Of a DNA stretch of 13,342 bases, positions 1 to 13,342 are shown piece by piece; within the stretch, counting starts at the first letter, position 1; the number at the start of each line of letters is the position of its first letter. Origin of the DNA: a virus (taxonomy: Duplodnaviria > Heunggongvirae > Uroviricota > Caudoviricetes); IMG/VR virus record IMGVR_UViG_2513237361_000015, positions 1-13,342 of that record. The stretch is one strand, 5' to 3'. The position numbers and the translations under genes were made by a program. Under the pieces are notes generated by a model, which ran no database searches, was not told the DNA's origin, and saw nothing but the letters and a program-made list of their open reading frames with translations.

Positions 1-982
1 TTAGTGAATATATCGAAAAAATACTTTTAAGCTAAAATTGCGGGTCAGATACGGCACCAGTGAATAGTTGATAAATCCCAGCCCCAGCTCTTCGATATTG
101 TTGAAGGTGGCGCGATCGGTGTTCTGCACCATGTGCAACGGCACCCGGAACAGACGACAGATTTCTTCAAGCTGAAACTTGCGGGTTTCCAGGAACTGGC
201 TGTCCTCGGCGTTCAGCGCCATCGACTTCCAGTCCAGCCCCATCTCAAGGATCATCGGGCGGTGAGCATTGCCAAGCCCGGTGTGACGCTCCTCAAAATC
301 TTTCTTCAGGCGCTCATAAGCCTGATCTGACAGCGTCTGCTCTGTACGCAACACACCCGACGTCACCGCGCCATTGCTGAACAGTCTGGCCCCGTGCTCT
401 TCGGTCGCGCCGCCAGCGATATTGCCTCGCGGGCATAGGCGATGGGATTCAGCCCCACCAGCCGTCCAGCGTCAGCGTGCGCACATGCCAGATATCTTCC
501 TGGCTCAGTACATCCGTGGAGCCGTCCGGGAATGTGACCTGATAGACCGGCTCCCAGCGACTGTTAAGCTTCGGTACCACACAACCGGGATCGACGGGCA
601 GCAGTTCAGCCACTTCGCCAAATGCTTTCACTTTATAGGCGTAAAAGTTGCCCCGCAGGCACAGACAGGTGACCACCAGCTCCCAGAACTCCTGCGGCGT
701 CATATAGCCATTGGGATGCGTGGAGATCAGCTTATGCAGACGTTCGCCAGTGGCTCTCTGCTTCAGGCTGCCGTTCAGGTGATACAGGTTGCAGGGCAAC
801 ATCCCGACCGACTCCGCCAGCACCCTGACACAGGAAAAAACCGCCGTCAGTCGCATGGCCCGCTGGCTGCTGATCTGCTTTCCGGTATAGGTGTGGTAGG
901 ACAACCCGATAGCATCCGCCAGCTCTGCTGGCGTGGTCACCGGTGCGTCACTTTTTCGTTGAAATAATCCCGAAAAGAACAC
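1..982 (-). pseudogene. Phage portal protein (HK97 family), disrupted by two frameshifts and 3'-truncated
   Basis: Minus ORFs 449..982 and 1..366 give portal-like sequence (N-terminal part ending TLTLDGWWG; C-terminal part with FQLEEICRLFRVPLHMVQN motif). The reading continues in a third frame as LNPIAYAREAISLAA between them, so two 1-nt shifts lie in about 400-455 (one at the C4 run 454-457). Total is about 330 aa and the last 12 codons are AT-rich. GTG start at 982 with GGAGG 6 nt upstream. Confidence 0.7.
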
Positions 983-1164
983 TATTTACCTCCGCCGACA
1001 GACGACTGTGTACGGTCGAGATATCGCGCCACCAGCCACGACCAGAACAGGCACAACGCCCCGGCAACAACAAACCCAGCCGGGGGATAAATCAGCCAGG
1101 CACCATACGCCAGCAAAAGCGCCCCCAGCACGCCCACCAGAGGCGCGAGAATCAGCATGATCAT
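982..1164 (-). CDS. Small hydrophobic protein (60 aa, two predicted TM helices) between terminase and portal
   Basis: ATG at 1164 preceded by GAGG with 5-nt spacer directly after the TerL stop; stop TAG overlaps the portal GTG (TAGTG). Sequence is almost entirely hydrophobic. Function unknown. Confidence 0.45.
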
Positions 1165-1175
1165 AATTACCTCAG

Positions 1176-2909
1176 TTAAAGCGAGCGGATCCCATAGGAC
1201 TCAATGTGGTCAGACAGCGTGTCTTCTTTCTCGTACAGCATGGCTCTGCCAACCGCCATAATCAGCGCAACTGCACCATCGATTTTGTTTTCCGCCTGCT
1301 CTTTGACGGGCTTCACCACATCATCGTTACCCGGAATGGTTTTGCCGACCACGTTGCCGATACACCAGGTCATGATGGGATTGCCATCATGATGAAAGCG
1401 CCCCGATTCAATTGCCGCTTCCAGCTCTTTCATCGGGTCGGACATGTTGGTGTAGTTCTGAATGATAGTGATGGGGTTCAGGTCTTCATCAGCAAGGTCA
1501 TGTGACAACCCGGTCGCCCCGAAGGGGTCGATGGGTGACTCACTGACCGGGCTGATTTTGTTCGCCGCTTTGGCCTCCTCGAGGATGTAGCGATAATCCA
1601 CCTCCGCACCATCGGTAACGGTCAGAACGCCCATTTCCACCCATTTCTGAAAGCGTTCGGCTGTCCGTCGATCTTCATTTTTCTCGACGCTGTACACCGT
1701 GTCATACGGTACCCAGAAACGCGGGGCCACACTGTAGTAATGCGTTTTACCGTCAATCTCGCGGGTATAAAGTCGCGCCATACTGTTCATATCCAGCTTA
1801 CGCGCCAGGTCAAAGGCCAGAATGCACGGCTGCCCCTCGAACTGCTCAAGGGTCAGTGATTTATCCTCGCAGCTCTGCCAGCTCACCAGATTGAAATACG
1901 CCGAACGCGCCGACACCCAGATATTGAGGTGTTTTGTTTTAAAGACGTTTGCCAGACGGGCGTTATTTTTCGCACGCTGCTGCTGACTTAACAAAAATTC
2001 GCGATAAACCGACACGCCAATATTTGGATTGGCTTTTTCCAGCACCTGCGGGTCGGTCCAGTCATCGCCTTCGTCAACGGTATAGATGATCCCGAACAGT
2101 TCATCGTTGGGCACCGAGCCGTTGAGCATCTCGATGACTTCCCGCCGCTTGTCGTAGCACGGCCCCTCAATGTTGTACCCGGCAGTAGTAATGGCCCACA
2201 TCAGTGGCTGACGTCGCGCCCCCATCCCGGTAAGCATCGTGGTGTAAAGCGCATCGGTGGCGTGCTCGTGATATTCATCCACCACGGCACAGTGGGGTGA
2301 TGAACCATCACCGGGGTTACCGATCAGCGGTTCAAAACGCGCACCATCCTCCGGACGGTTCATGTTTGAGGCGTTAACCTCAATCCCGAACGCTTCCGTC
2401 AGCATGGGTGTGCGTTTACACATCAGTCGTGCCGGACGAAAGACTTCCCATGCCTGTTTCTCCGTCGTGGCACCGGAATACACTTCCGCGCCGAACTCGT
2501 TATCACAGGCAAAACAATACAGGGCAACACCGGCAGAGATTGCCGATTTGCCGTTCTTACGGGGAATTTCGGTATACACCTCCCGGAAGCGGCGCAACCG
2601 GGTGCCTTTATTGACCCAGCCAAACGCACAGCAGATCACAAATAGCTGCCACGGCTCCAGCGTGATGGGCATCCGTTTAAATGCCCACTCACCCTTGGTG
2701 TGCGGCAACAGCTGAATAAATTTGGCGGCCCGTTCAGCCAGGTCCTTGTCGAAGCGGTAACGAAACGACTTACTTTTTTCCGCCATCAGGTCATCAAGAT
2801 GGCGCTGGCAGGCCTGAATCACAAACTGGCAGGCAACAATCTTTCCGCGCACGACATCCCGGGCATACTGATTTGCAGCATTTACGTTGGGGTAAGATTT
2901 CCGGCTCAT
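1176..2909 (-). CDS. Phage terminase large subunit
   Basis: 577-aa ORF with a Walker A-like PRKNGKSA motif and the overall look of lambdoid/HK97-type large terminases; start ATG overlaps the reconstructed TerS stop (ATGA). Confidence 0.9.
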
Positions 2910-3399
2910 GATTCGATAATTTTCAGAAACGGGTTAGTGGCTTTCTTCTTCCCCGCCAGGCCAATCAGACGCTGGCGGCTGCTGGGGTCGAGTCCGAGCA
3001 TTGCCCCCGTCTGCTCATCTCGGACTCCTGTTCTTTTTTGGCGGTCAGCTCCGGATTTTTGACCCTGCCGCCCATTGCACCGGTGATGGTGTTGCCCTGT
3101 ATGGCAATATTTTTCACGGCACGTCGCCAGAACTCATAGGCCACGCACCACCGCTCAAGTACCGCGAGGTCAGTCACGCACAGCAGGCCCTGACCGCAGA
3201 GTTCTTTGGTTGTCAGTTGCCACATGATCGTGGCGAGAGGGAGATCTTCTTCAGCGAACCACTCCGGTGGCTCAACACCTTTGATGGGCGTAAAAACAGG
3301 TTCATCTTTATTCAGGGCTCGCTTGCCGGGGTTTCCGGCCAGCGCCTTGCGCGCCGTTGGCTTGGGGCGACGCCCGGAACGCCCCGCCGTTCCAGCCAT
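2910..3399 (-). pseudogene. Phage terminase small subunit (P27 family), apparent 1-nt frameshift near its 3' end
   Basis: N-terminus MAGTAGRSGRRPKPTARKALAGNPGKR is P27-family-like; ATG at 3399 with AGGAG 8 nt upstream. The given frame stops at 2965, but the adjacent frame is open ([31 protein letters not shown]) down to a stop overlapping the TerL ATG. The switch point is the C5/G5 run at 3005-3009. Confidence 0.75.
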
Positions 3400-3408
3400 A
3401 TGCGGCAC

Positions 3409-3525
3409 TCCTGGTTAAATTTCATTTTTCGCGGGTATAAAAAAACGATGGGGCGGGCAGTCCGGAAGACGTCAGGTCACAGGGATTTGACCCGCCCCTC
3501 CCCCGCAGATAGTTGAGAGTTATTA
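3409..3525. other. Putative cos (cohesive end / terminase recognition) region
   Basis: Intergenic GC-rich segment between HNH endonuclease and terminase small subunit, the position cos occupies in HK97-type phages. On the minus strand it carries GGGGCGGG (3450-3443) and, about 41 nt further 3', its inverted copy CCCGCCCC (3401-3394). Confidence 0.3.
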
Positions 3526-3876
3526 TCACTTCAGTCGTTCACGGGCCGTCTTCGTCTTATGACACGGCCAGCACAGGCTCTGCAGATTGCAGTCTGCATC
3601 AGTGCCGCCATGCGCTTTAGGGATGATGTGGTCAACGGTTTTCGCCTCACGCACCACACCGACACGCAGGCACAACTGACACAGGCCTTTGTCACGCTTC
3701 AGCACGCGCGCGCGGATAACATCCCACTTCGAACCGTAGCCGCGCTGGTGACGGGATTGTCCTGGCTTGTATTGTTTCCAGCCTTCGCTTTTGTGGCTTT
3801 CGCAGTAGCCTGACGGGTCAGTGGTGGTTTGGCGGCAGCCGCGAACGCGGCAGGCTTTTGGGGTTCGTGGTGGCAT
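3526..3876 (-). CDS. HNH endonuclease (terminase-associated)
   Basis: ORF from ATG 3876 (GGAG 5 nt upstream) has paired Cys clusters (CRVRGC...C, CQLC, CWPC) and the DHIIPKAHGG HNH core; sits immediately upstream of cos and terminase as in HK97-like phages. Confidence 0.85.
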   Translation of the reverse strand: MPPRTPKACRVRGCRQTTTDPSGYCESHKSEGWKQYKPGQSRHQRGYGSKWDVIRARVLKRDKGLCQLCLRVGVVREAKTVDHIIPKAHGGTDADCNLQSLCWPCHKTKTARERLK

Positions 3877-3885
3877 GCTGGCTCC

Positions 3886-3912
3886 AATAAAAAACCCCGC
3901 GACGCGAGGCTT
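3886..3912 (-). terminator. Rho-independent terminator after the 67-aa membrane protein gene
   Basis: Minus strand reads GCCUCGCG-UC-GCGGGG followed by UUUUUUAUU: about 6-bp GC stem (one G-U pair) plus U6 tract. Confidence 0.5.
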
Positions 3913-3941
3913 AGACAGAAAAAACACCGGATAAGATCTGG

Positions 3942-4145
3942 TCATTCTTCCTTTTTAATAATGACTTCTCGAGGGCGCAATTGTTGGATAGCACGACAAA
4001 TACAATATGGAATAACTGCCCATGCTACTCCCATTGCTGCACCTGCAGCCTGTTGTGGAGCACTCTGAGCACCGAAAACCCCGAGGATTCCTTCAATAAA
4101 TCCAATAGCACTACACAAAAGACTGATGACCCAGAGAATTTTCAT
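3942..4145 (-). CDS. Small membrane protein (67 aa, two predicted TM helices), function unknown
   Basis: ATG at 4145 with AAGGAG 9 nt upstream; two hydrophobic stretches separated by a short Ala/Gln-rich segment, charged C-terminus KKEE; followed by a terminator. Confidence 0.5.
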   Translation of the reverse strand: MKILWVISLLCSAIGFIEGILGVFGAQSAPQQAAGAAMGVAWAVIPYCICRAIQQLRPREVIIKKEE

Positions 4146-4262
4146 AAACCCAAACTCCTTTTAAATAAACACTTTACTAGGATAATTCTCATAAAATGTT
4201 AGTAAAGTATTTTCAGGAAAATAGCGTATCACTGCCTATTTTTGACACTGATGCCGGGATAA

Positions 4263-4688
4263 TTATTCCGGTCGCTGGAGTTGCTCATGATGATACAGAG
4301 CGAGAATCAGGTCATAAGACCCTTGCCTGTCTTTGTAACCAGTTTTATCAACCAATTCAGCTTTACTGATTCCGGGTAAATCAAGAATCAGATTCGCAAC
4401 TTCAATTGCCCTTTGGTACAACTTACCGCCCTTTTTCTCCCCATGCAGTGGTTTTACATTCTTGAGGTAACCGCTATCCGCTAGGGCGAGAAATGTTGCC
4501 CTTGGGCATATCTTCTTTCTTGACGATTCGCTTTCTGTAACCTCTGCGACAGCTGTATCCCATGCATCACGAGGAGGCATTGAGCTATCAGCAACCAAAT
4601 GATAAGCGATTAAAGCGGCGCGCGCGTATTGAGACATAATGCATCCATATACAAAAATCTCATGATAAGACTTTTCTAATATGAACAC
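4263..4688 (-). CDS. Hypothetical soluble protein (about 124-141 aa), no recognisable domain
   Basis: Open frame immediately 3' of Rz on the minus strand in a lower-GC segment (about 42 percent in a 60-nt hand count). Start is uncertain: GTG 4688 overlaps the Rz 3' end, ATG 4637 has only a weak RBS. Confidence 0.4.
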
Positions 4689-5119
4689 TGTGATCTCACA
4701 TACTCTTGCAGGCCATTCAATTGGTTAGTTATGGTTTCGATGCGCTCTCTGAGAACGAAATAATCCCGTTGAGCGGTGTCAGTAAGTCTGGGGCTGGAAG
4801 CATCATCCACGCCGGAGGCGGCGGTGGTTTTATGCATGTCCGGACAGACTGCTTTGACGTGCAGCCACTTACGACCAGCAGAAACATCAGCACGAAGACT
4901 TTCGATAGTCGCGTTAGCATCAGCAAGCTCCTTTGTATATCTGGCATCGAGTTCAGCTACATTACTTTGACGTTTCTGCATGTCAGCGATAATGGATGCG
5001 GCCTTATCGCGCTGCTTTTTGTAGGTGATGGCGTTATCACGGTAATGATTAACCGCCCATGACAGGCAGACGATGATGCAGATAACCAGAACGGAGATAA
5101 TCGCGGTGACTCTGCTCAT
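4676..5119 (-). CDS. Rz: Rz i-spanin (inner-membrane lysis protein)
   Basis: 147 aa starting [34 protein letters not shown], with TKELADA and ASPRL...RDYF...RER motifs closely resembling lambda Rz; N-terminal TM anchor plus coiled-coil-like body. Confidence 0.9.
4729..4920 (-). CDS. Rz1: Rz1 o-spanin lipoprotein, embedded in Rz in the +1 frame
   Basis: Embedded ORF has lipobox LLVVSGC and CTSKQSV...KPPPPPAW...TPLNGIIS, matching lambda Rz1; internal Met start chosen from the longer 4729..4947 ORF. Confidence 0.85.
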
Positions 5120-5165
5120 ACCTCAATCTCTCTGACCGTTCCGCCAGCTTCTTTGAATTTTGCAA

Positions 5166-5393
5166 TCAGGCTGTCAACTTTATGCTCAAACTGACCATAA
5201 CCAGCCCCGGCAGTGAAGCCCAGATATTGCTGCAACGATCGCCACTGCGTTCTCTTCGGTGCGCTGCTGTTTGGCTTTCTCTGCTACTTTTCCACAACCA
5301 CGAACATTGCCAGTAAAAAACGCTGAGTGCGGCTGCAACCAGCACAACAATACCGCTAGCAATAATTTCTATGATTCCCATTATCTTTACCAT
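5166..5393 (-). CDS. Small hypothetical ORF (75 aa) with N-terminal TM segment; possibly frameshifted
   Basis: N-terminus MVKIMGIIEIIASGIVVLVAAALSVF is TM-like but the rest of the given frame is low-complexity. The adjacent frame after the A6/T6 run (5315-5320) reads TGNVRGCGKVAEKAKQQRTEENAVAIVAAISGLHCRGWLWSV, which looks more protein-like. Weak RBS. Confidence 0.3.
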   Translation of the reverse strand: MVKIMGIIEIIASGIVVLVAAALSVFYWQCSWLWKSSRESQTAAHRRERSGDRCSNIWASLPGLVMVSLSIKLTA

Positions 5394-5420
5394 CTCAGCA
5401 GTTTAGTTTTTGCAAGCATA

Positions 5421-5447
5421 AAAAAACCGCCCGAAGGCGGTTTTATA
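5421..5447 (-). terminator. Strong rho-independent terminator (usable in both directions)
   Basis: AAAAAA-ACCGCC-CGAA-GGCGGT-TTTT: 6-bp stem with tetraloop (UUCG on the minus strand), U-tracts on both sides; lies just 3' of the 93-aa gene. Confidence 0.6.
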
Positions 5448-5462
5448 ATAAATATACTAACC

Positions 5463-5744
5463 TCAGTCTTCCGTTCCATCTGGGTTGACAGGTTTGGTGA
5501 TTGCTTTCAGTCGAACAACTGGATCACCATCACCGTTGCTTACAACTGTTCTAATGGTCTTGTCATCCCGAGGGGTAAATGTTACTTCTACATCAAATCC
5601 CATAGCTGCATGTTCATCACACAAATAAGCGTTAGTATTGTGGGCCCAAATTGCAGATAAATTATCCAGTTCACGTCTCAGACGCACACCGATAATTTTA
5701 TCTGCATGTCTACCACATCCTTCAATGATGCATGTTCCTGACAT
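5463..5744 (-). CDS. Cys-rich small protein (93 aa), possible zinc-binding, function unknown
   Basis: ATG at 5744 with AAGGA 7 nt upstream; Cys at positions 5 and 10 plus a later LCDEH Cys/His pair suggest a small zinc ribbon; placed directly 3' of the methyltransferase. Confidence 0.5.
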   Translation of the reverse strand: MSGTCIIEGCGRHADKIIGVRLRRELDNLSAIWAHNTNAYLCDEHAAMGFDVEVTFTPRDDKTIRTVVSNGDGDPVVRLKAITKPVNPDGTED

Positions 5745-5796
5745 TGTATTTTCCTTCTTTGGTTAACCAAGGAGAAAACTACCATAAACCAGAAAC

Positions 5797-6720
5797 CTAT
5801 TCAGCTTTTTTGCTGTAACTTACTACGCTAGTTAACCTTTTTCTTTCCAGCCCAAGTCGTTCTTTAGCTACTTGGCAGTGTTCATCAAGCAATTCAAAAC
5901 CTACTGACTTTCTGGACAGGCGAGATGCCGCCACAAGTGTAGTGCCTGAGCCTGCAAACGGATCCAAAACAACATCGCCTTCTGTTGTAAACAAACGAAT
6001 AAACCATTCAGGAAGAACTTCGGGGAATGCTGCACTGTGGCCTTTGTTACCACATTCAGTTGCCATGTGCAGCACATTCGTCGGGTATGCCATTTCTCTT
6101 CCCTGCCAGTTTGAAATGTTCTTTCCGAACCCACTACCAACTCGCGACTCATCCCTCATCATGTCCCGCGAGCTTAATTTTTTTAGCCTCTCATTCTTCC
6201 AGTCCCCCACAGGAACCATAACCGCTTCTTGGTACATTGCAAACTTTCTGTTTTTTGTAAAGTGCAGACAGCGTTCCCAAGAATCTCTGAATCTATTAGG
6301 CCATTTACCAGGGAATGAATTCTTCTTATGCCAGATATATTCTTCTGTCCACAGCCAACCCAGCTCTCGCATTTTAAGAATAAGCTCTAAAACATATGTA
6401 TGTCTTTCGCCATTCACTACCTTCTCTTTAATGTTAAGCACAAAGGAGCCTGAAGGCTTAAGAACCCGTAGCAGTTGCTCCGCTATAGGTGAAAACCAGT
6501 CAACATACTTGTCAGGGGCAATGCCACCATAAGTCCTCTTTCGTTGATCTGCATACGGTGGTGAAGTAACGATGAGATCTACAGAAGAATCGTCCATCAT
6601 GGTTAGCAACTCAAGACAGTCTCCTTGATAGAGATTTATCTCATCAGTTTTTATATTAATTGTCGCTTTTTTAAGCATTCCATACATCTCCAGCGAAAGT
6701 AACTGAAGAATAGCAGCCAT
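5797..6720 (-). CDS. DNA methyltransferase, beta-class N6-adenine/N4-cytosine type
   Basis: Motif IV SPPY (TSPPYADQ) lies N-terminal to motif I DPFAGSGTT, the order typical of beta-class amino-methyltransferases; SPPY leans towards N4-cytosine but is not decisive. Likely true start is ATG 6678 (MLKKATINIK, GGAG 9 nt upstream). About 37 percent GC in a 60-nt hand count. Confidence 0.85.
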   Translation of the reverse strand: MAAILQLLSLEMYGMLKKATINIKTDEINLYQGDCLELLTMMDDSSVDLIVTSPPYADQRKRTYGGIAPDKYVDWFSPIAEQLLRVLKPSGSFVLNIKEKVVNGERHTYVLELILKMRELGWLWTEEYIWHKKNSFPGKWPNRFRDSWERCLHFTKNRKFAMYQEAVMVPVGDWKNERLKKLSSRDMMRDESRVGSGFGKNISNWQGREMAYPTNVLHMATECGNKGHSAAFPEVLPEWFIRLFTTEGDVVLDPFAGSGTTLVAASRLSRKSVGFELLDEHCQVAKERLGLERKRLTSVVSYSKKAE

Positions 6721-6793
6721 TCTTCCTGCGGTCCATCTCTTTCTACCCAGTTTTTTAAATTACATGGGTGCTTGGATAACTTGCCGCCGTCCC

Positions 6794-7405
6794 TCACACC
6801 AGCACCGATTTCGCCAGGTTAAACAGCGCGCGGCGTTTATCCAGACCGTTACTACCGCCATTAATAAGCAGCGTGACGCGTCCCAGGTCGCCAGAATGAA
6901 GCAGGCAACCGCGGGAAGCATAGAACCACGCAGCTGAGCGCGCGGCGTATTCATCCTGTTCCAGCAATTCAGGCTGGGTAACAAGGTCGAGTTTTAGTGC
7001 GTAGCCACAGATGCAATAATTACGGAGACCAGTGATTTGAATTAATCCTCTACCACGATATTTCCAGCCATCACCGGGTGCTTTGTTACCCAGTCGGTTG
7101 CTATACACCAGATTGGCAATAGCATCCTGACGAGCTGCATGTCCGGATGTTCTACCAAGGGCATCAGCCTGCTGCTGTGTGATCCTCTTTCCGAACGTCG
7201 CCACCAGCGCAGATGGTGTGTAGTTAAAATTTTCAACTACGGCGCTAAACCCCATCGACTCATGGCCTACCTGAGCGATAAACATTGCCTGATCCGCTGG
7301 TGCTGTAATGCCGAATTCCTTCATCGCCGCATCAATGTGCGGAAACCAGCGCGCAGCCAGCCCGGCGCTAATACCAGCCGCCTTTTGAAATAATTGTTGG
7401 TTCAT
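6794..7405 (-). CDS. Endolysin, glycoside hydrolase family 19 (chitinase-like phage lysozyme)
   Basis: 203 aa with AARWFPHI...EFGIT...AMFIAQVGHES.GF...ENFNY...GDGW.YRGRGLIQITG...QPELL.QDEYAARSAAWF...INGG.NG motifs characteristic of GH19 phage endolysins; ATG overlaps the upstream stop (TAATG). Confidence 0.9.
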   Translation of the reverse strand: MNQQLFQKAAGISAGLAARWFPHIDAAMKEFGITAPADQAMFIAQVGHESMGFSAVVENFNYTPSALVATFGKRITQQQADALGRTSGHAARQDAIANLVYSNRLGNKAPGDGWKYRGRGLIQITGLRNYCICGYALKLDLVTQPELLEQDEYAARSAAWFYASRGCLLHSGDLGRVTLLINGGSNGLDKRRALFNLAKSVLV

Positions 7406-7686
7406 TAGTGCCTCAGATGATCAACCAGACGTGCAACGTTGCCTCTGACGGCCACCAGCACGGAAAGGAAAATAGTGTTCGCCACGATAATGGGCCATGA
7501 GGAATGAGGATAAATCCCACAGAGATAGGCCAACGGAACAGCACTGTATGTAACAGTAATCAGCCAGGCTAAACGTGAAACCCAAGGACGATGCCGCGAA
7601 TCACCACGACGATAAAACATCAGAGTAATAACAACACAAGCACATAACAGCGCATTTATAGTTGCTGTCGGGTCATTTAGCTCCAC
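7405..7686 (-). CDS. Membrane protein (93 aa, about 3 TM), holin/antiholin-like lysis accessory
   Basis: Hydrophobic ORF between the putative holin and the endolysin, overlapping both neighbours; assignment rests on position and hydrophobicity only. Confidence 0.45.
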   Translation of the reverse strand: MELNDPTATINALLCACVVITLMFYRRGDSRHRPWVSRLAWLITVTYSAVPLAYLCGIYPHSSWPIIVANTIFLSVLVAVRGNVARLVDHLRH

Positions 7687-8059
7687 CTGAACCTCCCCGG
7701 CGCGTTATGAGCGCCACCAGCGAGCCGATATCCTGATTATTCAGGAACGTCAGGATTTTAACGGCTAAAGCAGAGACGATTACGGCACCAATAGCATCCA
7801 GAGGTTTATCACTGTATCCGGTCAAGTTCGCCAGCTTGGAGCCAACCAACCCAGAGCAAAGAATCCCGGCAATATATGACACGATAAAATATGCCAGTCG
7901 ACGCGATGCACTCAGATCTGCTGCTGTTGCTATGTAGAATACAGCCCCTGCAAATGCACCAAATACAACGCCGTAATCAGTTCCGGTCAGCAGTCCATAA
8001 ACACTGGCACCCGTCAGGGCACCACCAGCCAGCCCAGTACCGGAAATTGGATCGGACAT
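7673..8059 (-). CDS. Putative holin (128 aa, multiple TM segments)
   Basis: First gene of the lysis cluster after the Q-proximal cargo; Gly/Ala-rich TM segments and charged C-terminus; ATG 8059 preceded by GAGGGGG with 4-nt spacer. Confidence 0.55.
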   Translation of the reverse strand: MSDPISGTGLAGGALTGASVYGLLTGTDYGVVFGAFAGAVFYIATAADLSASRRLAYFIVSYIAGILCSGLVGSKLANLTGYSDKPLDAIGAVIVSALAVKILTFLNNQDIGSLVALITRRGGSGGAK

Positions 8060-8172
8060 TTAGCCCCCTCTTAATTGCTGTGAGTCCTCTCAGGTATGAG
8101 GGGAAATAGGCTCAGGCTTCACGGGCTGGATATATCAACAAAGCACGTAACGGATGATTCCCGTGATCCTGA

Positions 8173-8199
8173 AATAAAAAAGCCCCGCTATTACGGGGC
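8173..8199 (-). terminator. Rho-independent terminator after the 213-aa moron gene
   Basis: Plus strand AAATAAAAAA-GCCCCG-CTATTA-CGGGGC; on the minus strand this is a 6-bp GC stem followed by UUUUUUAUUU. Confidence 0.6.
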
Positions 8200-8219
8200 A
8201 GTTAATAGAATTATAAAGT

Positions 8220-8861
8220 TTAAAAGTTTAAAGAAACCATAAAGCTACCAGGCTCTGCACCAGCTTCTTTATTTATTTCTTTACGGATTACCTCATTAAC
8301 CTGAAAAGCCTCATTGTAAACTTTTTCTAAGTTAATTGACGCCTTCATATTATAGTATGTTTTTTCCTCACAAACATATAACCTTATCGGATATGGCCTA
8401 GGGTTGATTGCCTTCCAGTGGGAGATCACAAAATTATAAACTGCAATACCATGACCTTTCATCTTCCCTGCTGTAACATCAATGTTTAGCTGATCTAAAT
8501 ACTCATCGAAGTGTTGCAAGGTGTTTCTCACCCTCACGGAATTAATTTCCTTAATTTCAATATCTTTTATTTTTTGTTGAAGGTAATTACTTCGCTCAAT
8601 ATGCAATCTGAATTGTTCAGGGGATTCTTCCCTAGTCTTATTTTTAGGAACTGCGATTAGTTTCTTGACGTTAGCCGCATCTGAAAGAATGCTATTTATT
8701 AATATATGAATATTGTAATCAATTTTAAAGTAGTAACCAGCATCAGGAAGTGGTGTCTCATGAAAGAGCTCTTCACAGCGTGTTTTTATCGAATGAGTTA
8801 ACAACCATAATTCGTGCAAATAAATAAAATTAAGTTTCATTTGCTCAAAGGTTTTTGACAT
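8220..8861 (-). CDS. Hypothetical protein (213 aa), AT-rich moron in the Q-to-lysis hotspot, no recognisable domain
   Basis: Uninterrupted ORF with ATG 8861 and AGGAG 8 nt upstream, about 30-33 percent GC in hand counts against about 52 percent for the phage backbone; own promoter-like element and terminator; no TM segments or motifs I recognise. Confidence 0.65.
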   Translation of the reverse strand: MSKTFEQMKLNFIYLHELWLLTHSIKTRCEELFHETPLPDAGYYFKIDYNIHILINSILSDAANVKKLIAVPKNKTREESPEQFRLHIERSNYLQQKIKDIEIKEINSVRVRNTLQHFDEYLDQLNIDVTAGKMKGHGIAVYNFVISHWKAINPRPYPIRLYVCEEKTYYNMKASINLEKVYNEAFQVNEVIRKEINKEAGAEPGSFMVSLNF

Positions 8862-8889
8862 AGCGAACTCTCCTTTTCAATAGTCCGCT

Positions 8890-8919
8890 TTTATAGCATT
8901 TACATAAGGGGCCTGTGAA
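8890..8919 (-). promoter_or_regulatory. Candidate sigma70 promoter for the 213-aa moron gene
   Basis: Minus strand TTCACA (8919-8914), 18-nt spacer, TATAAA (8895-8890), about 30 nt upstream of the ATG. Confidence 0.3.
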
Positions 8920-9016
8920 TTACTATTCTGTTGCTTACCACACTCTCGCAGTGGCCGCGCTCATGCCTTTGAGACCGTAGTCAGGGGTATCTCATGAATC
9001 CCTCACCTCTAACCGG

Positions 9017-9037
9017 AGAACGATTGGCGATCGTTCT
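9017..9037. repeat. Perfect 8-bp inverted repeat AGAACGAT-(5 nt)-ATCGTTCT
   Basis: Read directly from the sequence; no flanking U-tract on either strand, so not a terminator; candidate protein-binding palindrome or RNA hairpin in the late leader. Confidence 0.5.
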
Positions 9038-9202
9038 GGAGTACCGGCACACCTCTTCTTTATTAACCCTAACCAGTGTGTGTTGCAGTTCGTACCTGCA
9101 TCTGGCTCTCATGGAGACTCGGGACCGCATCACGACTGCGGATTTGCCTATCGGCTGCGGTCTATCCGTTTACTGGTGCATTTTCTTACCCTCCAGAAAA
9201 GC

Positions 9203-9226
9203 AAAAACCCCGCCGAAGCGAGGTTT
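9203..9226 (-). terminator. tR'-like rho-independent terminator in the late-transcript leader
   Basis: Minus strand CCUCGC-UUCG-GCGGGG followed by UUUUUGCUUUUCU, about 45-60 nt downstream of the candidate late promoter; strand-specific, since the plus-strand version mispairs. Confidence 0.5.
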
Positions 9227-9273
9227 GTTATGATTTCGTTAACGGCAGACATACAAAGCCCATCGTTAGGAAA

Positions 9274-9302
9274 ATCCTAACCAGATTTTTTGAAAAATGC
9301 AA
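9274..9302 (-). promoter_or_regulatory. pR'-like late promoter (candidate site of Q engagement)
   Basis: Minus strand TTGCAT (9302-9297), 17-nt spacer, TAGGAT (9279-9274), beginning about 32 nt after the Q stop codon, the canonical lambdoid position. Confidence 0.4.
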
Positions 9303-9333
9303 GAATCATGTCGCTATCTTCGGCGAAAATCAT

Positions 9334-10086
9334 TTATCTCGTCACTTTTCTTAATTGCGCCTCAGCATATGCTTCTTCCTGCCAGCACTTTGTCACCAGT
9401 TTATCAATGACATCTGCATATCCTTTGTACCACTGATAATCCGTCAGGTCTGGTACCAGCTTCTGGACATGATGCCGCGCCAGTGTGGTTGGTAAACGGC
9501 TAAACCGGTTTCCATTGCAACGCCCACAAATCTTATAAACAGGCATGCCATGAAGCCGGGTTCTTTTTTCATCCAGGACAATACCTTTACCCTTACACCC
9601 TCTGCACGCTGTGCTGACTTCTCCCTTACCATGACAATGCTGACATAGTTCCTTCACCCACTCTTCCTTGATAACAGATTCCCCGTTTCTGGAGTGTTTC
9701 ACCACTTCGCGCAATACATTATGAAATCCCGTACCTGCACAATGCTCACAGCGAGCCTTACTTGCCGCAGATCTGGAATAATCAGCAAAGGCAAAATTCA
9801 CAAGGTAAGGAATGATCTGTAGCCGGGTTTCTTCACTCAATTTATTCAATGTCGGGTTATCCAGTGCCATCGCGTAATTGAGCAGACCTTCAATCGCAAA
9901 CTGAGGATCCTGAACACCAACTTTTGCCAGGAATAAGGCAAACCCAAGCGGTGCTTTCGACTGCACCATCCCCTGCGCAGCCATCACATCCGTAATCGTT
10001 AAACCACCTGAGCCTGTCGCCGGTGCGTCATCGCTCAATTTTGGAGATTTTGGGGAGTAATATTTTGGTAAGGCTTCAAGGTTCAT
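9334..10086 (-). CDS. Q: Late-gene antitermination protein Q (lambda Q family)
   Basis: Matches lambda Q at YSPKSPKLSDD, TDVMAAQGM.QS, FAFADYSRSAAS.ARCEHCAGTG and C-terminal KVTR; carries an extra Cys/His-rich segment (CQHCHGKGEVSTACRGCKGKG, CGRCNG). Start chosen at ATG 10086 (GGAG 7 nt upstream, just after the DUF968 stop). Confidence 0.85.
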   Translation of the reverse strand: MNLEALPKYYSPKSPKLSDDAPATGSGGLTITDVMAAQGMVQSKAPLGFALFLAKVGVQDPQFAIEGLLNYAMALDNPTLNKLSEETRLQIIPYLVNFAFADYSRSAASKARCEHCAGTGFHNVLREVVKHSRNGESVIKEEWVKELCQHCHGKGEVSTACRGCKGKGIVLDEKRTRLHGMPVYKICGRCNGNRFSRLPTTLARHHVQKLVPDLTDYQWYKGYADVIDKLVTKCWQEEAYAEAQLRKVTR

Positions 10087-10099
10087 GCTCGTTCTCCAC

Positions 10100-11095
10100 T
10101 TACGCCAGTACGCCAATTGCCAGCGCACGATCGATAAAACGAAATATCAGCTCCAGTTGGGAGCCATACTTCTCTTCAAATGCCACGGTATCCGCATGCA
10201 GTTCGTCGTGATGCTTTCTGCACAAAGGCAACACAAAGAGGTCATGCGCTTTTGTACCCATTCCCCCCTGACCGTGGCCTATCAGGTGGTGGGGATCATC
10301 AGCAGGCTTTCCACAACATGCACACGGCTGTGTCTTAACCCAGCGCGTGTACTTTTCATTAACCCAGCGGCGACGTTTGGGGCGTAACATAAAAGACTCC
10401 GGCGACTCCGGCTCCACTTTCAGCGCCAGCACCTTTTTCGCTTTATCCTGGATGATGCTGGTGGCAGGAACCGAAGGCACAAGGTCACTTTCCCGGGTGA
10501 CAGACGGCACAACAGGCTTCGGTAATCTCAGTGCCTTACGGGCTGCACTTTCCGGTAAGGCATCCGCCAGATCATTACGAACCAGCCACCAGCACAGTTC
10601 CGGCATTGTCACAACGTGACTGTCATCAAAACCGAGATCCCGACGCACAACAGACAACACCCAGCGGGCACAGTTATCCGTTGCCATTGATTCCAGCCGT
10701 TCCGTGAATTGATCGCGCAGCTGGTTATCACAGTGCCAGCACAGACGGATTGCGCCCGGAGCGTGTCGCATTGTGGTCATGTTCTCGCTGTGCCAGTCGG
10801 AATGAGGCCACTGGCAGCCCTTTTCACGAAGTAACCAGCTTTCAAGACATTCCACGCCACCAGCACGACGGATCACTGCCTCATTGCGGAACACGGCCCG
10901 AACAGCAGGATCATCCGCCAGCGGTTGTGATGCCGCGGGAACGGCACCACTGGCGAAAGATGAATAACGTTCCGGCTCAGGCTCCAGCAGTACACGCCCC
11001 TGCATAAACAGGGGCATCAGCTCTGAACCTGGTCTGAACAATACGATCCCCATACGCGGGGCTATTTCAGGGGTCAGTAGTGCTCTCACGGTCAC
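10100..11095 (-). CDS. DUF968-family prophage protein with HNH-like Cys/His C-terminal motif
   Basis: 331-aa ORF whose C-terminus (CACCGKPADDPHHLIGHG...LCRKHHDELH) fits the zinc-binding motif of DUF968 proteins found next to Q in lambdoid prophages; start GTG 11095 or 11089. Confidence 0.65.
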   Translation of the reverse strand: MTVRALLTPEIAPRMGIVLFRPGSELMPLFMQGRVLLEPEPERYSSFASGAVPAASQPLADDPAVRAVFRNEAVIRRAGGVECLESWLLREKGCQWPHSDWHSENMTTMRHAPGAIRLCWHCDNQLRDQFTERLESMATDNCARWVLSVVRRDLGFDDSHVVTMPELCWWLVRNDLADALPESAARKALRLPKPVVPSVTRESDLVPSVPATSIIQDKAKKVLALKVEPESPESFMLRPKRRRWVNEKYTRWVKTQPCACCGKPADDPHHLIGHGQGGMGTKAHDLFVLPLCRKHHDELHADTVAFEEKYGSQLELIFRFIDRALAIGVLA

Positions 11096-11096
11096 C

Positions 11097-11636
11097 TCAA
11101 TGAACGGTATCGAGCAGCTTTAACAGCTCAGGGAATCGGGATTCGAAGAAATGCGGCTGCGTCTCGCGCGGATTTGCGGGACTGGTGATGTTCTTGCCGA
11201 ACATGCAGCCTTTCGCTGTCAGCGACCAGAATTTTTTGATGTTGTTAATCGCGGTACGGCTGTATCGTTCGCGCTGCTCGACGATCCCCAGCTTCACCAT
11301 CTGGTGATATGCCTGATTAGCTGTCAGGTGGATACCATACTGCTTCAGCAGTGCACTCAGTGACAGCGTGGGGCGGCTTGAACCATCAGGCGCGTCAGCA
11401 GGAGCATCAATGGCATAGCGCGGTGCCAGATTCGGTAAGCCAACAGCCTCCTGGAGTTTCTGACAGGCACCAAGCACTGAAGAGTTAGACAGGTTTAACT
11501 CCCTGCGCATAAAGTCCAGCAGAATCACTCCAGCCTGCATCTTGTCAGCAGCCTGCCCGGATAATTTTTCCGGTACGCTGGTTACCATGTCGAAAGTACG
11601 GATCACCTTCAGATGGAATGACGGGCTGATCCACAT
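11097..11636 (-). pseudogene. Phage antirepressor-like protein, 5'-truncated (only the last part of a KilA-N domain plus the C-terminal domain remains)
   Basis: Recognisable sequence begins at DYVCKELVYAYAMWISPSFHLKV, which resembles the C-terminal end of KilA-N domains; the upstream part of the 318-aa ORF is low-complexity and overlaps the plus-strand fimbrial gene. First in-frame ATG is 11636. Confidence 0.45.
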
Positions 11637-11787
11637 TGCATAGGCATACACCAGTTCCTTGCAGACATAATCGGATTTTGAACTGCGGTTGCCAGCAGAG
11701 GGTACACCTGCAGCATGGCAGGCGGGGCTGAATGTGACGGTTACAGTACAGTGATGGTTGCAGGGATATAAGGAGAAAAAAAGAGAA

Positions 11788-12552
11788 ATGAAAAAGGTGA
11801 CGTTGTTTCTGTTTGCTGCCGGCCTCCTGCCTTCCTGTGTACTGGCCTGGAACACGCCGGGAGAAGATTTCAGCGGAGAGCTTAAGCTGGAAGGCCCGGT
11901 GACCAGCACCCGTAACCCGTGGGTATGGAAAGTCGGACAGGGAAATGAAGGCCTGGAGGTTAAACAGAGCCGCGGTGTTCGTGACGGTGAGCAGGCAATT
12001 CCGGTCGCACTGCCGGCGATGCCCGTTTTACTGGGAAAAACCACCCTGACCACACCGGCAGGACGTGAGGGGCTTTCTCCCCGTGTCAGTTACGGAAAGG
12101 GTACTGAGGGATTTTCATTTGAATGGACAGCACCAGGCGTGGCGGAGGTGACGCTGCCTGTCACCGGAGATAATAACGTCCGGGCAGGCACTTTTGTTTT
12201 CAGAATGCAGGCTGCGGGGGTGTTGCGCCATGTGAAGGACGGACAGCCGGCGTATGCCGGTGTGTATGACGACCTGAATGTGAATGGTCTGCCTGGTGAA
12301 AGCGCAGCCATGAAGACTTCTGATATTCCGGGTGTTCTGCAGAAGATGTTCAGTGGCGAAGGCCCCGGCTGGCTGCAGACAATGACCATCAGTGGTTATT
12401 CAGGAGTGAGTCATTTCAGTGATGCCTCCCTGCGTCAGGTCGAAGGTGCGTATGGCGCACAGATGGTGGCGGGCAGTGGTGAATTACGTCTGAACGGTGC
12501 AATGCCGGAACGCTGGCGGGTGTCACTGCCGGTAAGTATTGAGTACCAGTAA
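11788..12552 (+). CDS. K88/F4-family fimbrial subunit (FaeG/FaeH-like)
   Basis: Signal peptide MKKVTLFLFAAGLLPSCVLA, then WNTPGEDFSGELKLEG...WVWKVGQG...MPVLLGKT, recalled from memory as resembling the mature N-terminus of K88 FaeG; C-terminal strand ends SIEYQ. ATG 11788 with AGGAG upstream. Confidence 0.55.
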   Translation: MKKVTLFLFAAGLLPSCVLAWNTPGEDFSGELKLEGPVTSTRNPWVWKVGQGNEGLEVKQSRGVRDGEQAIPVALPAMPVLLGKTTLTTPAGREGLSPRVSYGKGTEGFSFEWTAPGVAEVTLPVTGDNNVRAGTFVFRMQAAGVLRHVKDGQPAYAGVYDDLNVNGLPGESAAMKTSDIPGVLQKMFSGEGPGWLQTMTISGYSGVSHFSDASLRQVEGAYGAQMVAGSGELRLNGAMPERWRVSLPVSIEYQ

Positions 12553-12568
12553 ACAGGAGGGCGGCCCG

Positions 12569-13342
12569 GTGCTGAATATTATTCATCGTCTGAAGTCCGG
12601 TATGTTTCCGGCTCTGTTTTTTCTGACTTCAGCCAGTGTGCTGGCGCAACCGCTGACTATTCCTCCGGGCCACTGGCAGGAGGGTATGGCTGTGGGCGTG
12701 ACGGAATTCAGCGGCACGCTGTATGTCCGCGATGTGTCCTGGCAGTGGCAGCCCCGCGCTGTGCGTATGAGTTCTCCTGATGCTGTGCAGGCTGGCCTGG
12801 CAGCGGGTAAAGGTGGCATGGTCAGTGAAAGCCGGAGAGGGCAGGATTTTTATATTCTTGGCGGGCATACCACATCACTGACAACTGCCCGTCCGGGGCT
12901 GCAGCCGTCGGTGACATTGCTTCAGGTGACACCATCATCCCCCCGTATTGAGGCCCGGGGAGAACTTGCCCGGGGACAGGTACGTTACGGGGAAATCACG
13001 TTCACGCTGCGCCATCTTCTGGCATGGCAGGACAATATTACTGGCGGTCAGGGCTGGAGCGTGGTCAGCGGAGAGGTGACGCCGGAGGCCGAAAAACAGG
13101 TGAAACGCCAGTTATGGCAGGTGAACGGCTATGAATGGACCCCGGATTATGCCGGATTAACCGCACGTCCTGATGCGTTTATTTCAGGAACTGAGTCGCT
13201 GTTGTCACAGGGGAATGGCAGCCAGCATATTGCCGGTGCCTGGGTGATGTACCTGAGTGATGTGCGGGTGAATTTCCCCGGTGCTGAGGAGCCGGTAAAA
13301 CGCTGGCAGGGTAATCTGACACCGGTGGTGGTGTATTTCTGA
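12569..13342 (+). CDS. Second K88/F4-like fimbrial subunit paralogue, secreted
   Basis: GTG 12569 with AGGAGG 8 nt upstream; signal peptide (LNIIHRLKSGMFPALFFLTSASVLA-QP); same length class and W.W / FSG pattern as the upstream gene; ends VVVYF. Confidence 0.5.
   Translation: MLNIIHRLKSGMFPALFFLTSASVLAQPLTIPPGHWQEGMAVGVTEFSGTLYVRDVSWQWQPRAVRMSSPDAVQAGLAAGKGGMVSESRRGQDFYILGGHTTSLTTARPGLQPSVTLLQVTPSSPRIEARGELARGQVRYGEITFTLRHLLAWQDNITGGQGWSVVSGEVTPEAEKQVKRQLWQVNGYEWTPDYAGLTARPDAFISGTESLLSQGNGSQHIAGAWVMYLSDVRVNFPGAEEPVKRWQGNLTPVVVYF

Follow-up and report, generated by a model that had tools for sequence, protein, structure and literature searches.

A small membrane-protein gene with its own predicted expression signals and a DUF6979 gene are separate cargo in the lysis-packaging interval of an SfI/e14-like prophage

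The window studied here, nucleotides (nt) 1 to 13,342 of the IMG/VR virus record IMGVR_UViG_2513237361_000015, contains the late region of an SfI/e14-like prophage, which reads on the minus strand. Its closest annotated relatives are E. coli prophages (99.6% identity) and the Shigella phage SfI. Two minus-strand open reading frames (ORFs) lie between the spanin genes Rz/Rz1 and an HNH endonuclease gene. One encodes a soluble protein that we assign to the uncharacterised family DUF6979, and the other encodes a protein of 67 amino acids (aa) with two transmembrane (TM) helices, a member of phrog_12304. A first-pass annotation, made from the letters of the sequence, had described them as a two-gene accessory cassette in which a small membrane protein is paired with a soluble partner. 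Our analysis confirmed the coordinates of both ORFs and the view that they are accessory cargo in the slot between lysis and packaging genes. The pairing, however, found no support in co-occurrence, in expression logic or in the PADLOC defence models, so that the observation was largely correct but its interpretation as a paired module was not. We found instead that the two are unrelated prophage cargo genes that have become neighbours by chance.

The AlphaFold (AF2) model of the 67-aa protein is a helical hairpin (pLDDT 85.7) with helices at 2-24 and 29-55, and hydropathy concurs. Hydropathy and charge predict an inner-membrane hairpin whose two termini are cytoplasmic and whose short SAPQQ loop, free of charges, lies in the periplasm. 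We found 45 homologues across Enterobacterales, and the host genera of the gene are Escherichia, Shigella, Enterobacter, Rahnella, Ewingella, Kluyvera, Pantoea, Yersinia, Morganella and Edwardsiella. The alignment of homologues has an invariant core, A-x-S-A-P-Q-Q-A-A-G-A-A-(M/I)-G-x-A-W-A-V-I-P-Y-C, within which the loop and second-helix (TM2) motif SAPQQAAGAA..AWAVIPYC is without variation. In the predicted topology, the core takes in the short loop on the periplasmic side and, within TM2, the outer half; the first helix (TM1) is variable and the C-terminal tail is basic. The ratio of nonsynonymous to synonymous substitution rates (dN/dS) of the small gene is 0.053 at a dS of about 1.3, where synonymous sites are near saturation, and that of the DUF6979 gene is 0.25. 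Purifying selection at these levels (0.05 and 0.25) indicates that both are more than chance ORFs.

No homologue of the 67-aa protein was found outside phage or prophage-like contexts, and it did not occur once on the 72,556 plasmids searched. An identity as a type IV secretion system (T4SS) pilin was considered and rejected, as the Pfam match (E = 0.059) fell below threshold and the protein is on none of those plasmids. A search of NCBIfam gave no match, and a literature search found the accessions of the proteins in no paper. The reference genome of phage SfI (JX509734) carries a 100% identical copy of the 67-aa protein at 37695-37895, which was left unannotated.

We then compared the DNA around the small gene in 73 distinct contexts, 71 of which had flanks long enough for scoring. 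In 64 of the 71, the pair TTTACT and TATCCT or a close variant stands upstream of the gene at a spacing of exactly 16 nt, although the sequence of the spacer itself varies. Among these 64 contexts the -35 box reads TTTACT in 59 and TTTACA in 5; the -10 box reads TATCCT in 52, TATCAT in 9, TATTCT in 2 and TATGCT in 1, with T1, A2, T3 and T6 never changed. The variants TTTACA, TATCAT, TATTCT and TATGCT leave intact the positions most important for sigma-70 recognition. The non-coding DNA that moves with the gene consists of gCTTTACTaaa, the variable 16-nt spacer, TTATCCTAAT, and then AAGGAGTT before the ATG. Its information content has maxima at both boxes and at the ribosome-binding site (RBS), is low in the spacer and is gone beyond about -65 from the ATG.

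The downstream border of the conserved DNA is equally sharp. About 22 nt past the stop codon of the small gene lies a terminator, AGCCTCGC-loop-GCGGGGC followed by a T-run, and homology stops after the T-run. A strict pattern recovers the same hairpin, with variable loops, 3' of the gene in 61 of the 71 contexts, and the number rises when variant stems are included. In the window, the RBS of the HNH gene begins at the base right after the terminator, and this RBS and the ATG that follows occupy 3885-3874. Copies of the small gene from other contexts align with the window from 3886 or 3942 through 4207-4215, at 70-77% identity. The strong RBS, the separate terminator and the lower GC content that the first-pass annotation had noted are all present (Table 1): GC is 0.40 in the unit, and 0.40-0.46 over the low-GC segment, compared with 0.59 in the HNH gene and 0.60 in the gene of the small terminase subunit (TerS).

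The surroundings of the small gene differ widely. Its upstream neighbours fall into more than 40 unrelated clusters. On the downstream side, almost every context has the gene of a terminase small subunit, with at least four unrelated types represented, and the small gene therefore usually stands last before cos and the packaging module. Independent transcription units that have been added to a phage genome are known as morons, and are recognised by their own promoter and terminator, deviant GC content and variable presence among related phages (PMC3594210). In silico, the small gene shows each of these features, namely its own predicted promoter, its own terminator, a differing base composition and variable presence. 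We consider it highly probable that the small gene is a moron and that the two genes are independent of each other. The small gene would then be an autonomous unit, in which a predicted sigma-70-type promoter, a strong RBS, the coding sequence and an intrinsic terminator share about 330 bp of low-GC DNA, a block that has moved horizontally as a whole. It would be transcribed from the repressed prophage, and probably also by read-through from the late operon.

The neighbouring gene is organised differently. The first-pass annotation had given its product a length of 124-141 aa; the longer form starts at a GTG and the shorter one at an ATG, and the Pfam match, the RefSeq annotation and all homologues begin at the ATG. 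The same annotation had seen no recognisable domain, which did not hold: the protein belongs to PF22399 (DUF6979), which it matches at 97.2 bits against a gathering cut-off of 27, with residues 18-137 of the 141-aa ORF aligned to profile positions 1-126 of 127. Its AF2 model has seven helices (pLDDT 90.5), and a structure search with this model returned no convincing structural neighbour. The family comprised 521 clusters in an exhaustive search, and 980 proteins from bacteria and archaea in a profile search. These proteins are nearly always standalone and of about 128 aa, and the longer relatives carry no other Pfam domain. The term DUF6979 occurs in no paper of the library searched. The family core reads S-x-SS-RKK-G-C-P-R...F-L-G-L-C-E...N-G-Q-M-D-V-V. 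Compared with the rest of PF22399/phrog_5039, the 124-aa protein keeps W26 and the K42-x-C44-P45 (K-x-C-P) core, whereas the enterobacterial phage clade has ALAD or TLAD in place of the family motif GLCE and hence lacks the second Cys.

In phages of Escherichia, Shigella and Salmonella the DUF6979 gene always lies 38-41 nt after Rz, whichever type of holin, endolysin or terminase the phage carries; in the window it begins 38 nt after the Rz stop codon. We found no promoter-like site and no convincing terminator around it, and the protein is therefore probably made late, together with the lysis proteins. By its position, DUF6979 is a promoter-less gene appended to Rz; it would be transcribed with the late lysis operon and would not need the membrane protein.

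The distribution of the two genes was then examined from both sides. DUF6979 led to 47 viral loci. The small gene follows about 120 nt downstream in 18 of them and is absent from the remaining 29, in which DUF6979 lies 41 nt after Rz. Among 80 viral loci found through the small gene, 17 have DUF6979 upstream and 63 do not. All of these 17 belong to an E. coli/Shigella lineage in which the small protein is 99-100% identical to that of the window. Furthermore, of 5,426 complete E. coli genomes, 248 have DUF6979 and 52, among these 248, have the small-gene unit. In relatives without the small gene, the slot is taken by a KilA-N gene or by a reverse-strand 60-aa ORF. The latter is a conserved soluble ORF with no PHROG family, seen in the pre-terminase slot of three DUF6979-only prophages (at 3974-4156 on the minus strand in one of them). 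In an Enterobacter phage that has both genes they are 2.2 kb apart and in different slots, and in another locus a 100% identical small gene adjoins a DUF6979 gene whose product is just 68% identical.

The junction between the two genes also bears the mark of recombination. In DUF6979-only genomes, the megablast match is limited to nt 1-327 of the 375-nt DUF6979 gene, and the alignments start at position 4311 of the window, inside the 3' end of the gene. The C-terminal 16 residues of DUF6979 differ between small-gene carriers and non-carriers.

These observations bear directly on the idea that DUF6979 and the membrane protein form one two-gene module, be it a toxin-antitoxin, abortive-infection or sensor-effector exclusion system. 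In the SfI-like lineage the two genes lie side by side in one orientation, 117 nt apart, and distant relatives of DUF6979 are enriched in defence neighbourhoods, both of which would suit such a module. Against it stand the separation of the genes in the Enterobacter phage, the recombination joint between them and the failure of PADLOC to match either protein, and a recurrent small membrane neighbour was seen in none of 71 distant DUF6979 loci. Most carriers of each gene lack the other, and for this reason we conclude that the two are not inherited as a unit and are not a functional pair. The expression logic also differs, a promoter-less gene in the late operon on one side and a gene with its own conserved promoter and terminator on the other, which leaves the pairing unsupported. 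The module is thus largely refuted by distribution, and we regard it as very improbable. The case warns against reading a module into a phage cargo slot simply because a small membrane gene and a soluble gene lie next to each other there.

What, then, might the small protein do? Its closeness to the lysis genes raises a role in lysis timing, as a class II holin, a pinholin-like protein or an antiholin. Like the class II holins and pinholins (S21, DLP12 EssD), it has about 70 aa, two hydrophobic helices and a charged C-terminus; S21/EssD-type holins, with 71 aa, share its size and topology. TM2 is rich in Ala and Gly, and most lambdoid contexts have the gene downstream of the lysis cassette and in the same orientation. 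However, remote-homology comparison with known lysis accessory genes, a check named in the first-pass annotation, gave no link: the hhalign probability was at most 0.14% against an EssD-type holin and both holins of the window, no Pfam holin model matched, and the PHROG is outside the lysis category. Class II holin genes also differ in position, since the small gene is not immediately upstream of the endolysin gene but downstream of the spanins and behind DUF6979, where variable cargo and its own promoter and terminator set it apart from the lysis genes. Every carrier inspected already has a full holin-endolysin-spanin set, the copies in Morganella and in the Edwardsiella phage Edno5 are not near lysis genes, and expression of a holin from the prophage would be lethal. 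A lysis-timing component is consequently an improbable identity for the protein.

The small hydrophobic product and the compact, self-contained locus would also fit a type I toxin-like membrane peptide that is controlled by an antisense RNA and stabilises the prophage. The details fit poorly: the product has two TM helices, its gene has a strong RBS and a predicted promoter of the sigma-70 type, and the invariance of the polar loop speaks for recognition of a specific target and not for general damage to membranes. We found no Rfam small RNA (sRNA) or antisense family in the region at E up to 1, although a novel sRNA is possible, and no promoter-like site on the opposite strand within the unit. 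This explanation appears highly unlikely.

More informative were the two most divergent contexts of the gene, both of which lack the promoter. A Morganella homologue (53% identical) lies directly after a tape-measure gene (phrog_2276, E = 2e-164), and the homologue in Edno5 (56% identical) lies after the gene of an SLT-domain lytic tail protein and before mnt/arc/ant. Such positions recall known exclusion genes. HK97 gp15 is the founding moron and an inner-membrane superinfection-exclusion protein (Cumby et al. 2012, summarised in PMC3594210), whose N-terminal region was reported to resemble YebO (PMC3594210). Both gp15 and the protein described here are small (62-67 aa) inner-membrane proteins encoded in self-contained units with a terminator amid lambdoid late genes, and gp15 lies beside the tape-measure gene as do the divergent homologues of the 67-aa protein. 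They differ in that gp15, judged from its sequence, apparently has one N-terminal hydrophobic segment rather than two TM helices, and is encoded in the tail operon rather than before cos and terminase. In addition, the 67-aa protein has no chromosomal homologues, and exclusion is known for gp15 whereas our protein is known from sequence alone.

A second comparison is offered by P22 SieA (PMC10883804), which is 162-164 aa long, is predicted to cross the membrane three times and carries the motif FxRYPxEAxxFNK on its cytoplasmic side. It is likewise a prophage-encoded inner-membrane protein with its own promoter, and the Edno5 homologue occupies the slot of P22 sieA, between an ejection-protein gene and mnt/arc/ant. 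The 67-aa protein differs from it in having two helices only and no FxRYPxEAxxFNK motif, and the two are not homologous, which places it outside the SieA family. A third comparison is lambda bor. As the first-pass annotation had recognised, bor lies directly after Rz in lambda, so that it shares with the small gene the slot downstream of Rz/Rz1, before the right genome end and the packaging genes. It is listed as a host-benefit gene expressed from the prophage, as the small gene would be. In contrast, the annotation of its product is that of an outer-membrane protein, and bor is read from the opposite strand, whereas here an inner-membrane hairpin of unrelated sequence is encoded on the late strand.

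From the position of the gene and the architecture of its product, the function that we favour, if tentatively, is superinfection exclusion at the DNA-entry step. By occupying or altering a conserved site in the inner membrane on which incoming phages depend, the hairpin would keep the tape-measure or ejection proteins of these phages from opening a conduit for DNA, in a manner resembling HK97 gp15 and P22 SieA. Several points weigh against this proposal or against the moron structure. The predicted promoter agrees with the sigma-70 consensus at 8 of 12 positions, which is under the threshold of the scan tool. Adjacency to tape-measure genes is known from two related contexts only. In hhalign comparisons, a 29-sequence profile gave a probability of 1.3% for homology to gp15, leaving the protein outside the HK97 gp15/YebO family, and a probability of 0.24% was obtained for SieA; as these profile comparisons fail, the likeness to gp15 and SieA is one of analogy, not family membership. 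No PADLOC defence model matches the small protein. Finally, the invariant loop and TM2 fit a conserved host target, yet that target need not concern phage entry.

The last point leads to the main rival, in which the small protein serves lysogenic conversion: it would modulate a conserved inner-membrane protein of the host, such as a transporter, a sensor kinase or part of the envelope machinery, for a fitness benefit unrelated to exclusion. Small proteins that modulate host membrane proteins include MgrB, SafA and AcrZ. The periplasmic loop and outer TM2 are invariant from Escherichia to Morganella while TM1 varies, and this pattern, with a dN/dS of 0.05, is more readily explained by a conserved partner in the host than by phage proteins, which evolve fast. 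Organisation as a moron moreover implies expression in the lysogen, and morons such as bor and lom have host-interaction roles (PMC3594210). On the other hand, the restriction of homologues to phage and prophage-like contexts, with none on plasmids, does not favour host modulation, and the coupling of two divergent copies to tape-measure or injection genes is hard to square with a purely physiological role. We regard a host-modulating small membrane protein as unlikely, although roles in lysis timing or as a type I toxin are less likely still. Taken as a whole, the explanation by independent genes, a moron and superinfection exclusion stands at about an even chance of being right.

Nearby cargo also speaks for a link to DNA entry: in three loci, a 119-aa predicted lipoprotein with a TolA C-terminal domain is encoded about 540 nt upstream of the small gene. 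This lipoprotein could act as a decoy for the Tol-dependent entry of colicins or phages.

For DUF6979, we looked to the genes that surround the family elsewhere. The first contexts seen included Zorya ZorD, GmrSD-type nucleases, type I restriction-modification (R-M) systems, BrnTA and HNH genes. A genome scan was made with a tight DUF6979 alignment, and a larger neighbourhood sample comprised 71 genome loci. In these, 132 immediate neighbours match 140 Pfam families, a spread which indicates that DUF6979 has no fixed partner. A link to GmrSD as a general rule was rejected: two loci are striking, but a DUF262-like neighbour occurs in only 2 of the 71. The one arrangement that recurs has DUF6979 immediately upstream of hsdM, the gene of a type I R-M methyltransferase, in six of the loci, from independent lineages; the gap ranges from -8 to 206 nt and is no more than 117 nt in five of the six. 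In two of the six the DUF6979 proteins are 88% identical but the HsdM proteins only 25%. HNH genes adjoin DUF6979 in five of the 71 loci. The context of the family thus points weakly to functions related to nucleic acids or R-M, with a modest enrichment near type I R-M and HNH genes. The family was also seen in a pair of Enterobacter phages that differ between Q and the holin gene (locus coordinates ~300-3035). One carries an S-type pyocin/colicin DNase with its immunity gene; its sibling keeps the immunity gene, but where the toxin would be it has a DUF6979 gene (46% identical) and an ORF on the reverse strand.

These contexts allow a more ambitious reading, in which DUF6979 is a new small accessory or modulator protein of R-M and nuclease systems that phages have captured and express late. 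Independently of this, phrog_12304 would be a new and widespread superinfection-exclusion family of Enterobacterales prophages. The clues for the accessory role are the position before hsdM, the HNH neighbours, the GmrSD-type or Zorya genes in other loci and the conserved basic S-x-SS-RKK-G-C-P core, which is helix-turn-helix-like. DUF6979 could then serve as a controller, or else in restriction alleviation or anti-restriction, and its late expression near the packaging genes would influence the modification or restriction of progeny DNA. We consider this reading improbable.

The positions of the features named above, and of the late genes around them, are collected in Table 1.

Table 1. Positions in the window of the two cargo genes, their predicted signals and the surrounding late genes.
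Feature	Position	Strand	Remarks
Start of portal gene	449-982	minus	
Large terminase	1176-2909	minus	
P27-family small terminase	2965-3408	minus	PF05119 at 1.3e-12; downstream of the HNH gene
HNH endonuclease gene	3526-3876	minus	PF01844 at 1.1e-14; RefSeq annotation; start of the packaging module
Putative moron unit, complete, ~330 bp: promoter, 5' untranslated region, small gene, terminator	3886-4215	minus	stretch conserved across unrelated phage contexts
Intrinsic terminator: 9-bp GC-rich stem (AAGCCUCGC/GCGGGGUUU), then U-run	3886-3912 (hairpin 3912-3892)	minus	
Small membrane protein gene (67 aa, phrog_12304, two TM helices)	3942-4145	minus	phrog_12304 at E = 2e-44; no Pfam family
RBS AAGGAG, 9 nt before the ATG	4155-4160	minus	information peak at -13 to -6 across contexts
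Predicted -10 box TATCCT	4179-4184	minus	30-33 nt before the ATG
Predicted -35 box TTTACT	4201-4206	minus	kept in 64 of 71 contexts
DUF6979 gene (124 aa from the ATG at 4637; soluble, all-helical)	4263-4637	minus	PF22399 at 97.2 bits, phrog_5039; same start in RefSeq
Approximate mosaic joint inside the 3' end of DUF6979	~4311		relatives with DUF6979 but without the small gene lose DNA homology here
Rz i-spanin gene	4676-5119	minus	PF03245 at 3.5e-39; constant upstream partner of DUF6979
Rz1, embedded in Rz	4729-4947	minus	PF06085 at 1.3e-16
DNA methyltransferase (N6/N4)	5797-6720	minus	
GH19 endolysin	6794-7405	minus	
Two holins	7673-8059 and 7405-7686	minus	
Q antiterminator	9334-10128	minus	

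Several further features of the window were seen along the way. Just upstream of Rz, positions 5119-5240 (minus strand) hold a frameshifted remnant of the C-terminus of a GH24 lysozyme, which corresponds to residues 118-158 of the enzyme in a relative. From this remnant it follows that the present set of two holins and a GH19 endolysin was spliced in front of an older R-Rz unit. Between the endolysin gene and Rz lies an insert of low GC (0.39-0.43) at 5423-6720 on the minus strand. It holds the methyltransferase gene, a strong terminator at 5444-5423 and a Cys-rich 93-aa ORF at 5463-5744, which has no match in Pfam, PHROGs, NCBIfam or PADLOC.

A 213-aa ORF with a GC of 0.31-0.37 (8220-8861, minus strand), situated between the Q antiterminator and holin genes, has no significant family match in any library; its position is the slot of the toxin genes in Stx phages. 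A second small membrane protein amid structural genes is encoded between the large terminase and portal genes, as a hydrophobic, YmfR-like ORF of 60 aa (982-1164, minus strand). At the other end of the window, a KilA-N gene in 11097-13342 looks truncated, with its match limited to the C-terminal part of the domain, and from 11758 on the genes are on the plus strand and encode a K88-type fimbrial subunit. This strand switch and the fimbrial genes indicate that the early region of the prophage abuts, or was replaced by, fimbrial genes. The slot that separates lysis from packaging genes is a known hot spot with variable cargo, and its content in the window is ordinary in kind.

Collectively, these data draw attention to two families. 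DUF6979 is a large orphan family of bacteria and archaea, and its recurrent position before type I R-M operons is a lead to its function. The family phrog_12304 has no Pfam model, yet its gene is among the most constrained of the region (dN/dS about 0.05), and, together with its expression signals, this gene has made its way into prophages of the lambda-like, HK97-like, SfI-like and P22-like kinds in at least nine genera of enterobacteria. The unit of about 330 bp is thus a compact candidate for a new prophage-encoded exclusion or host-modulating factor, and the invariant periplasmic loop of its 67-aa product should point to a conserved target in the inner membrane.

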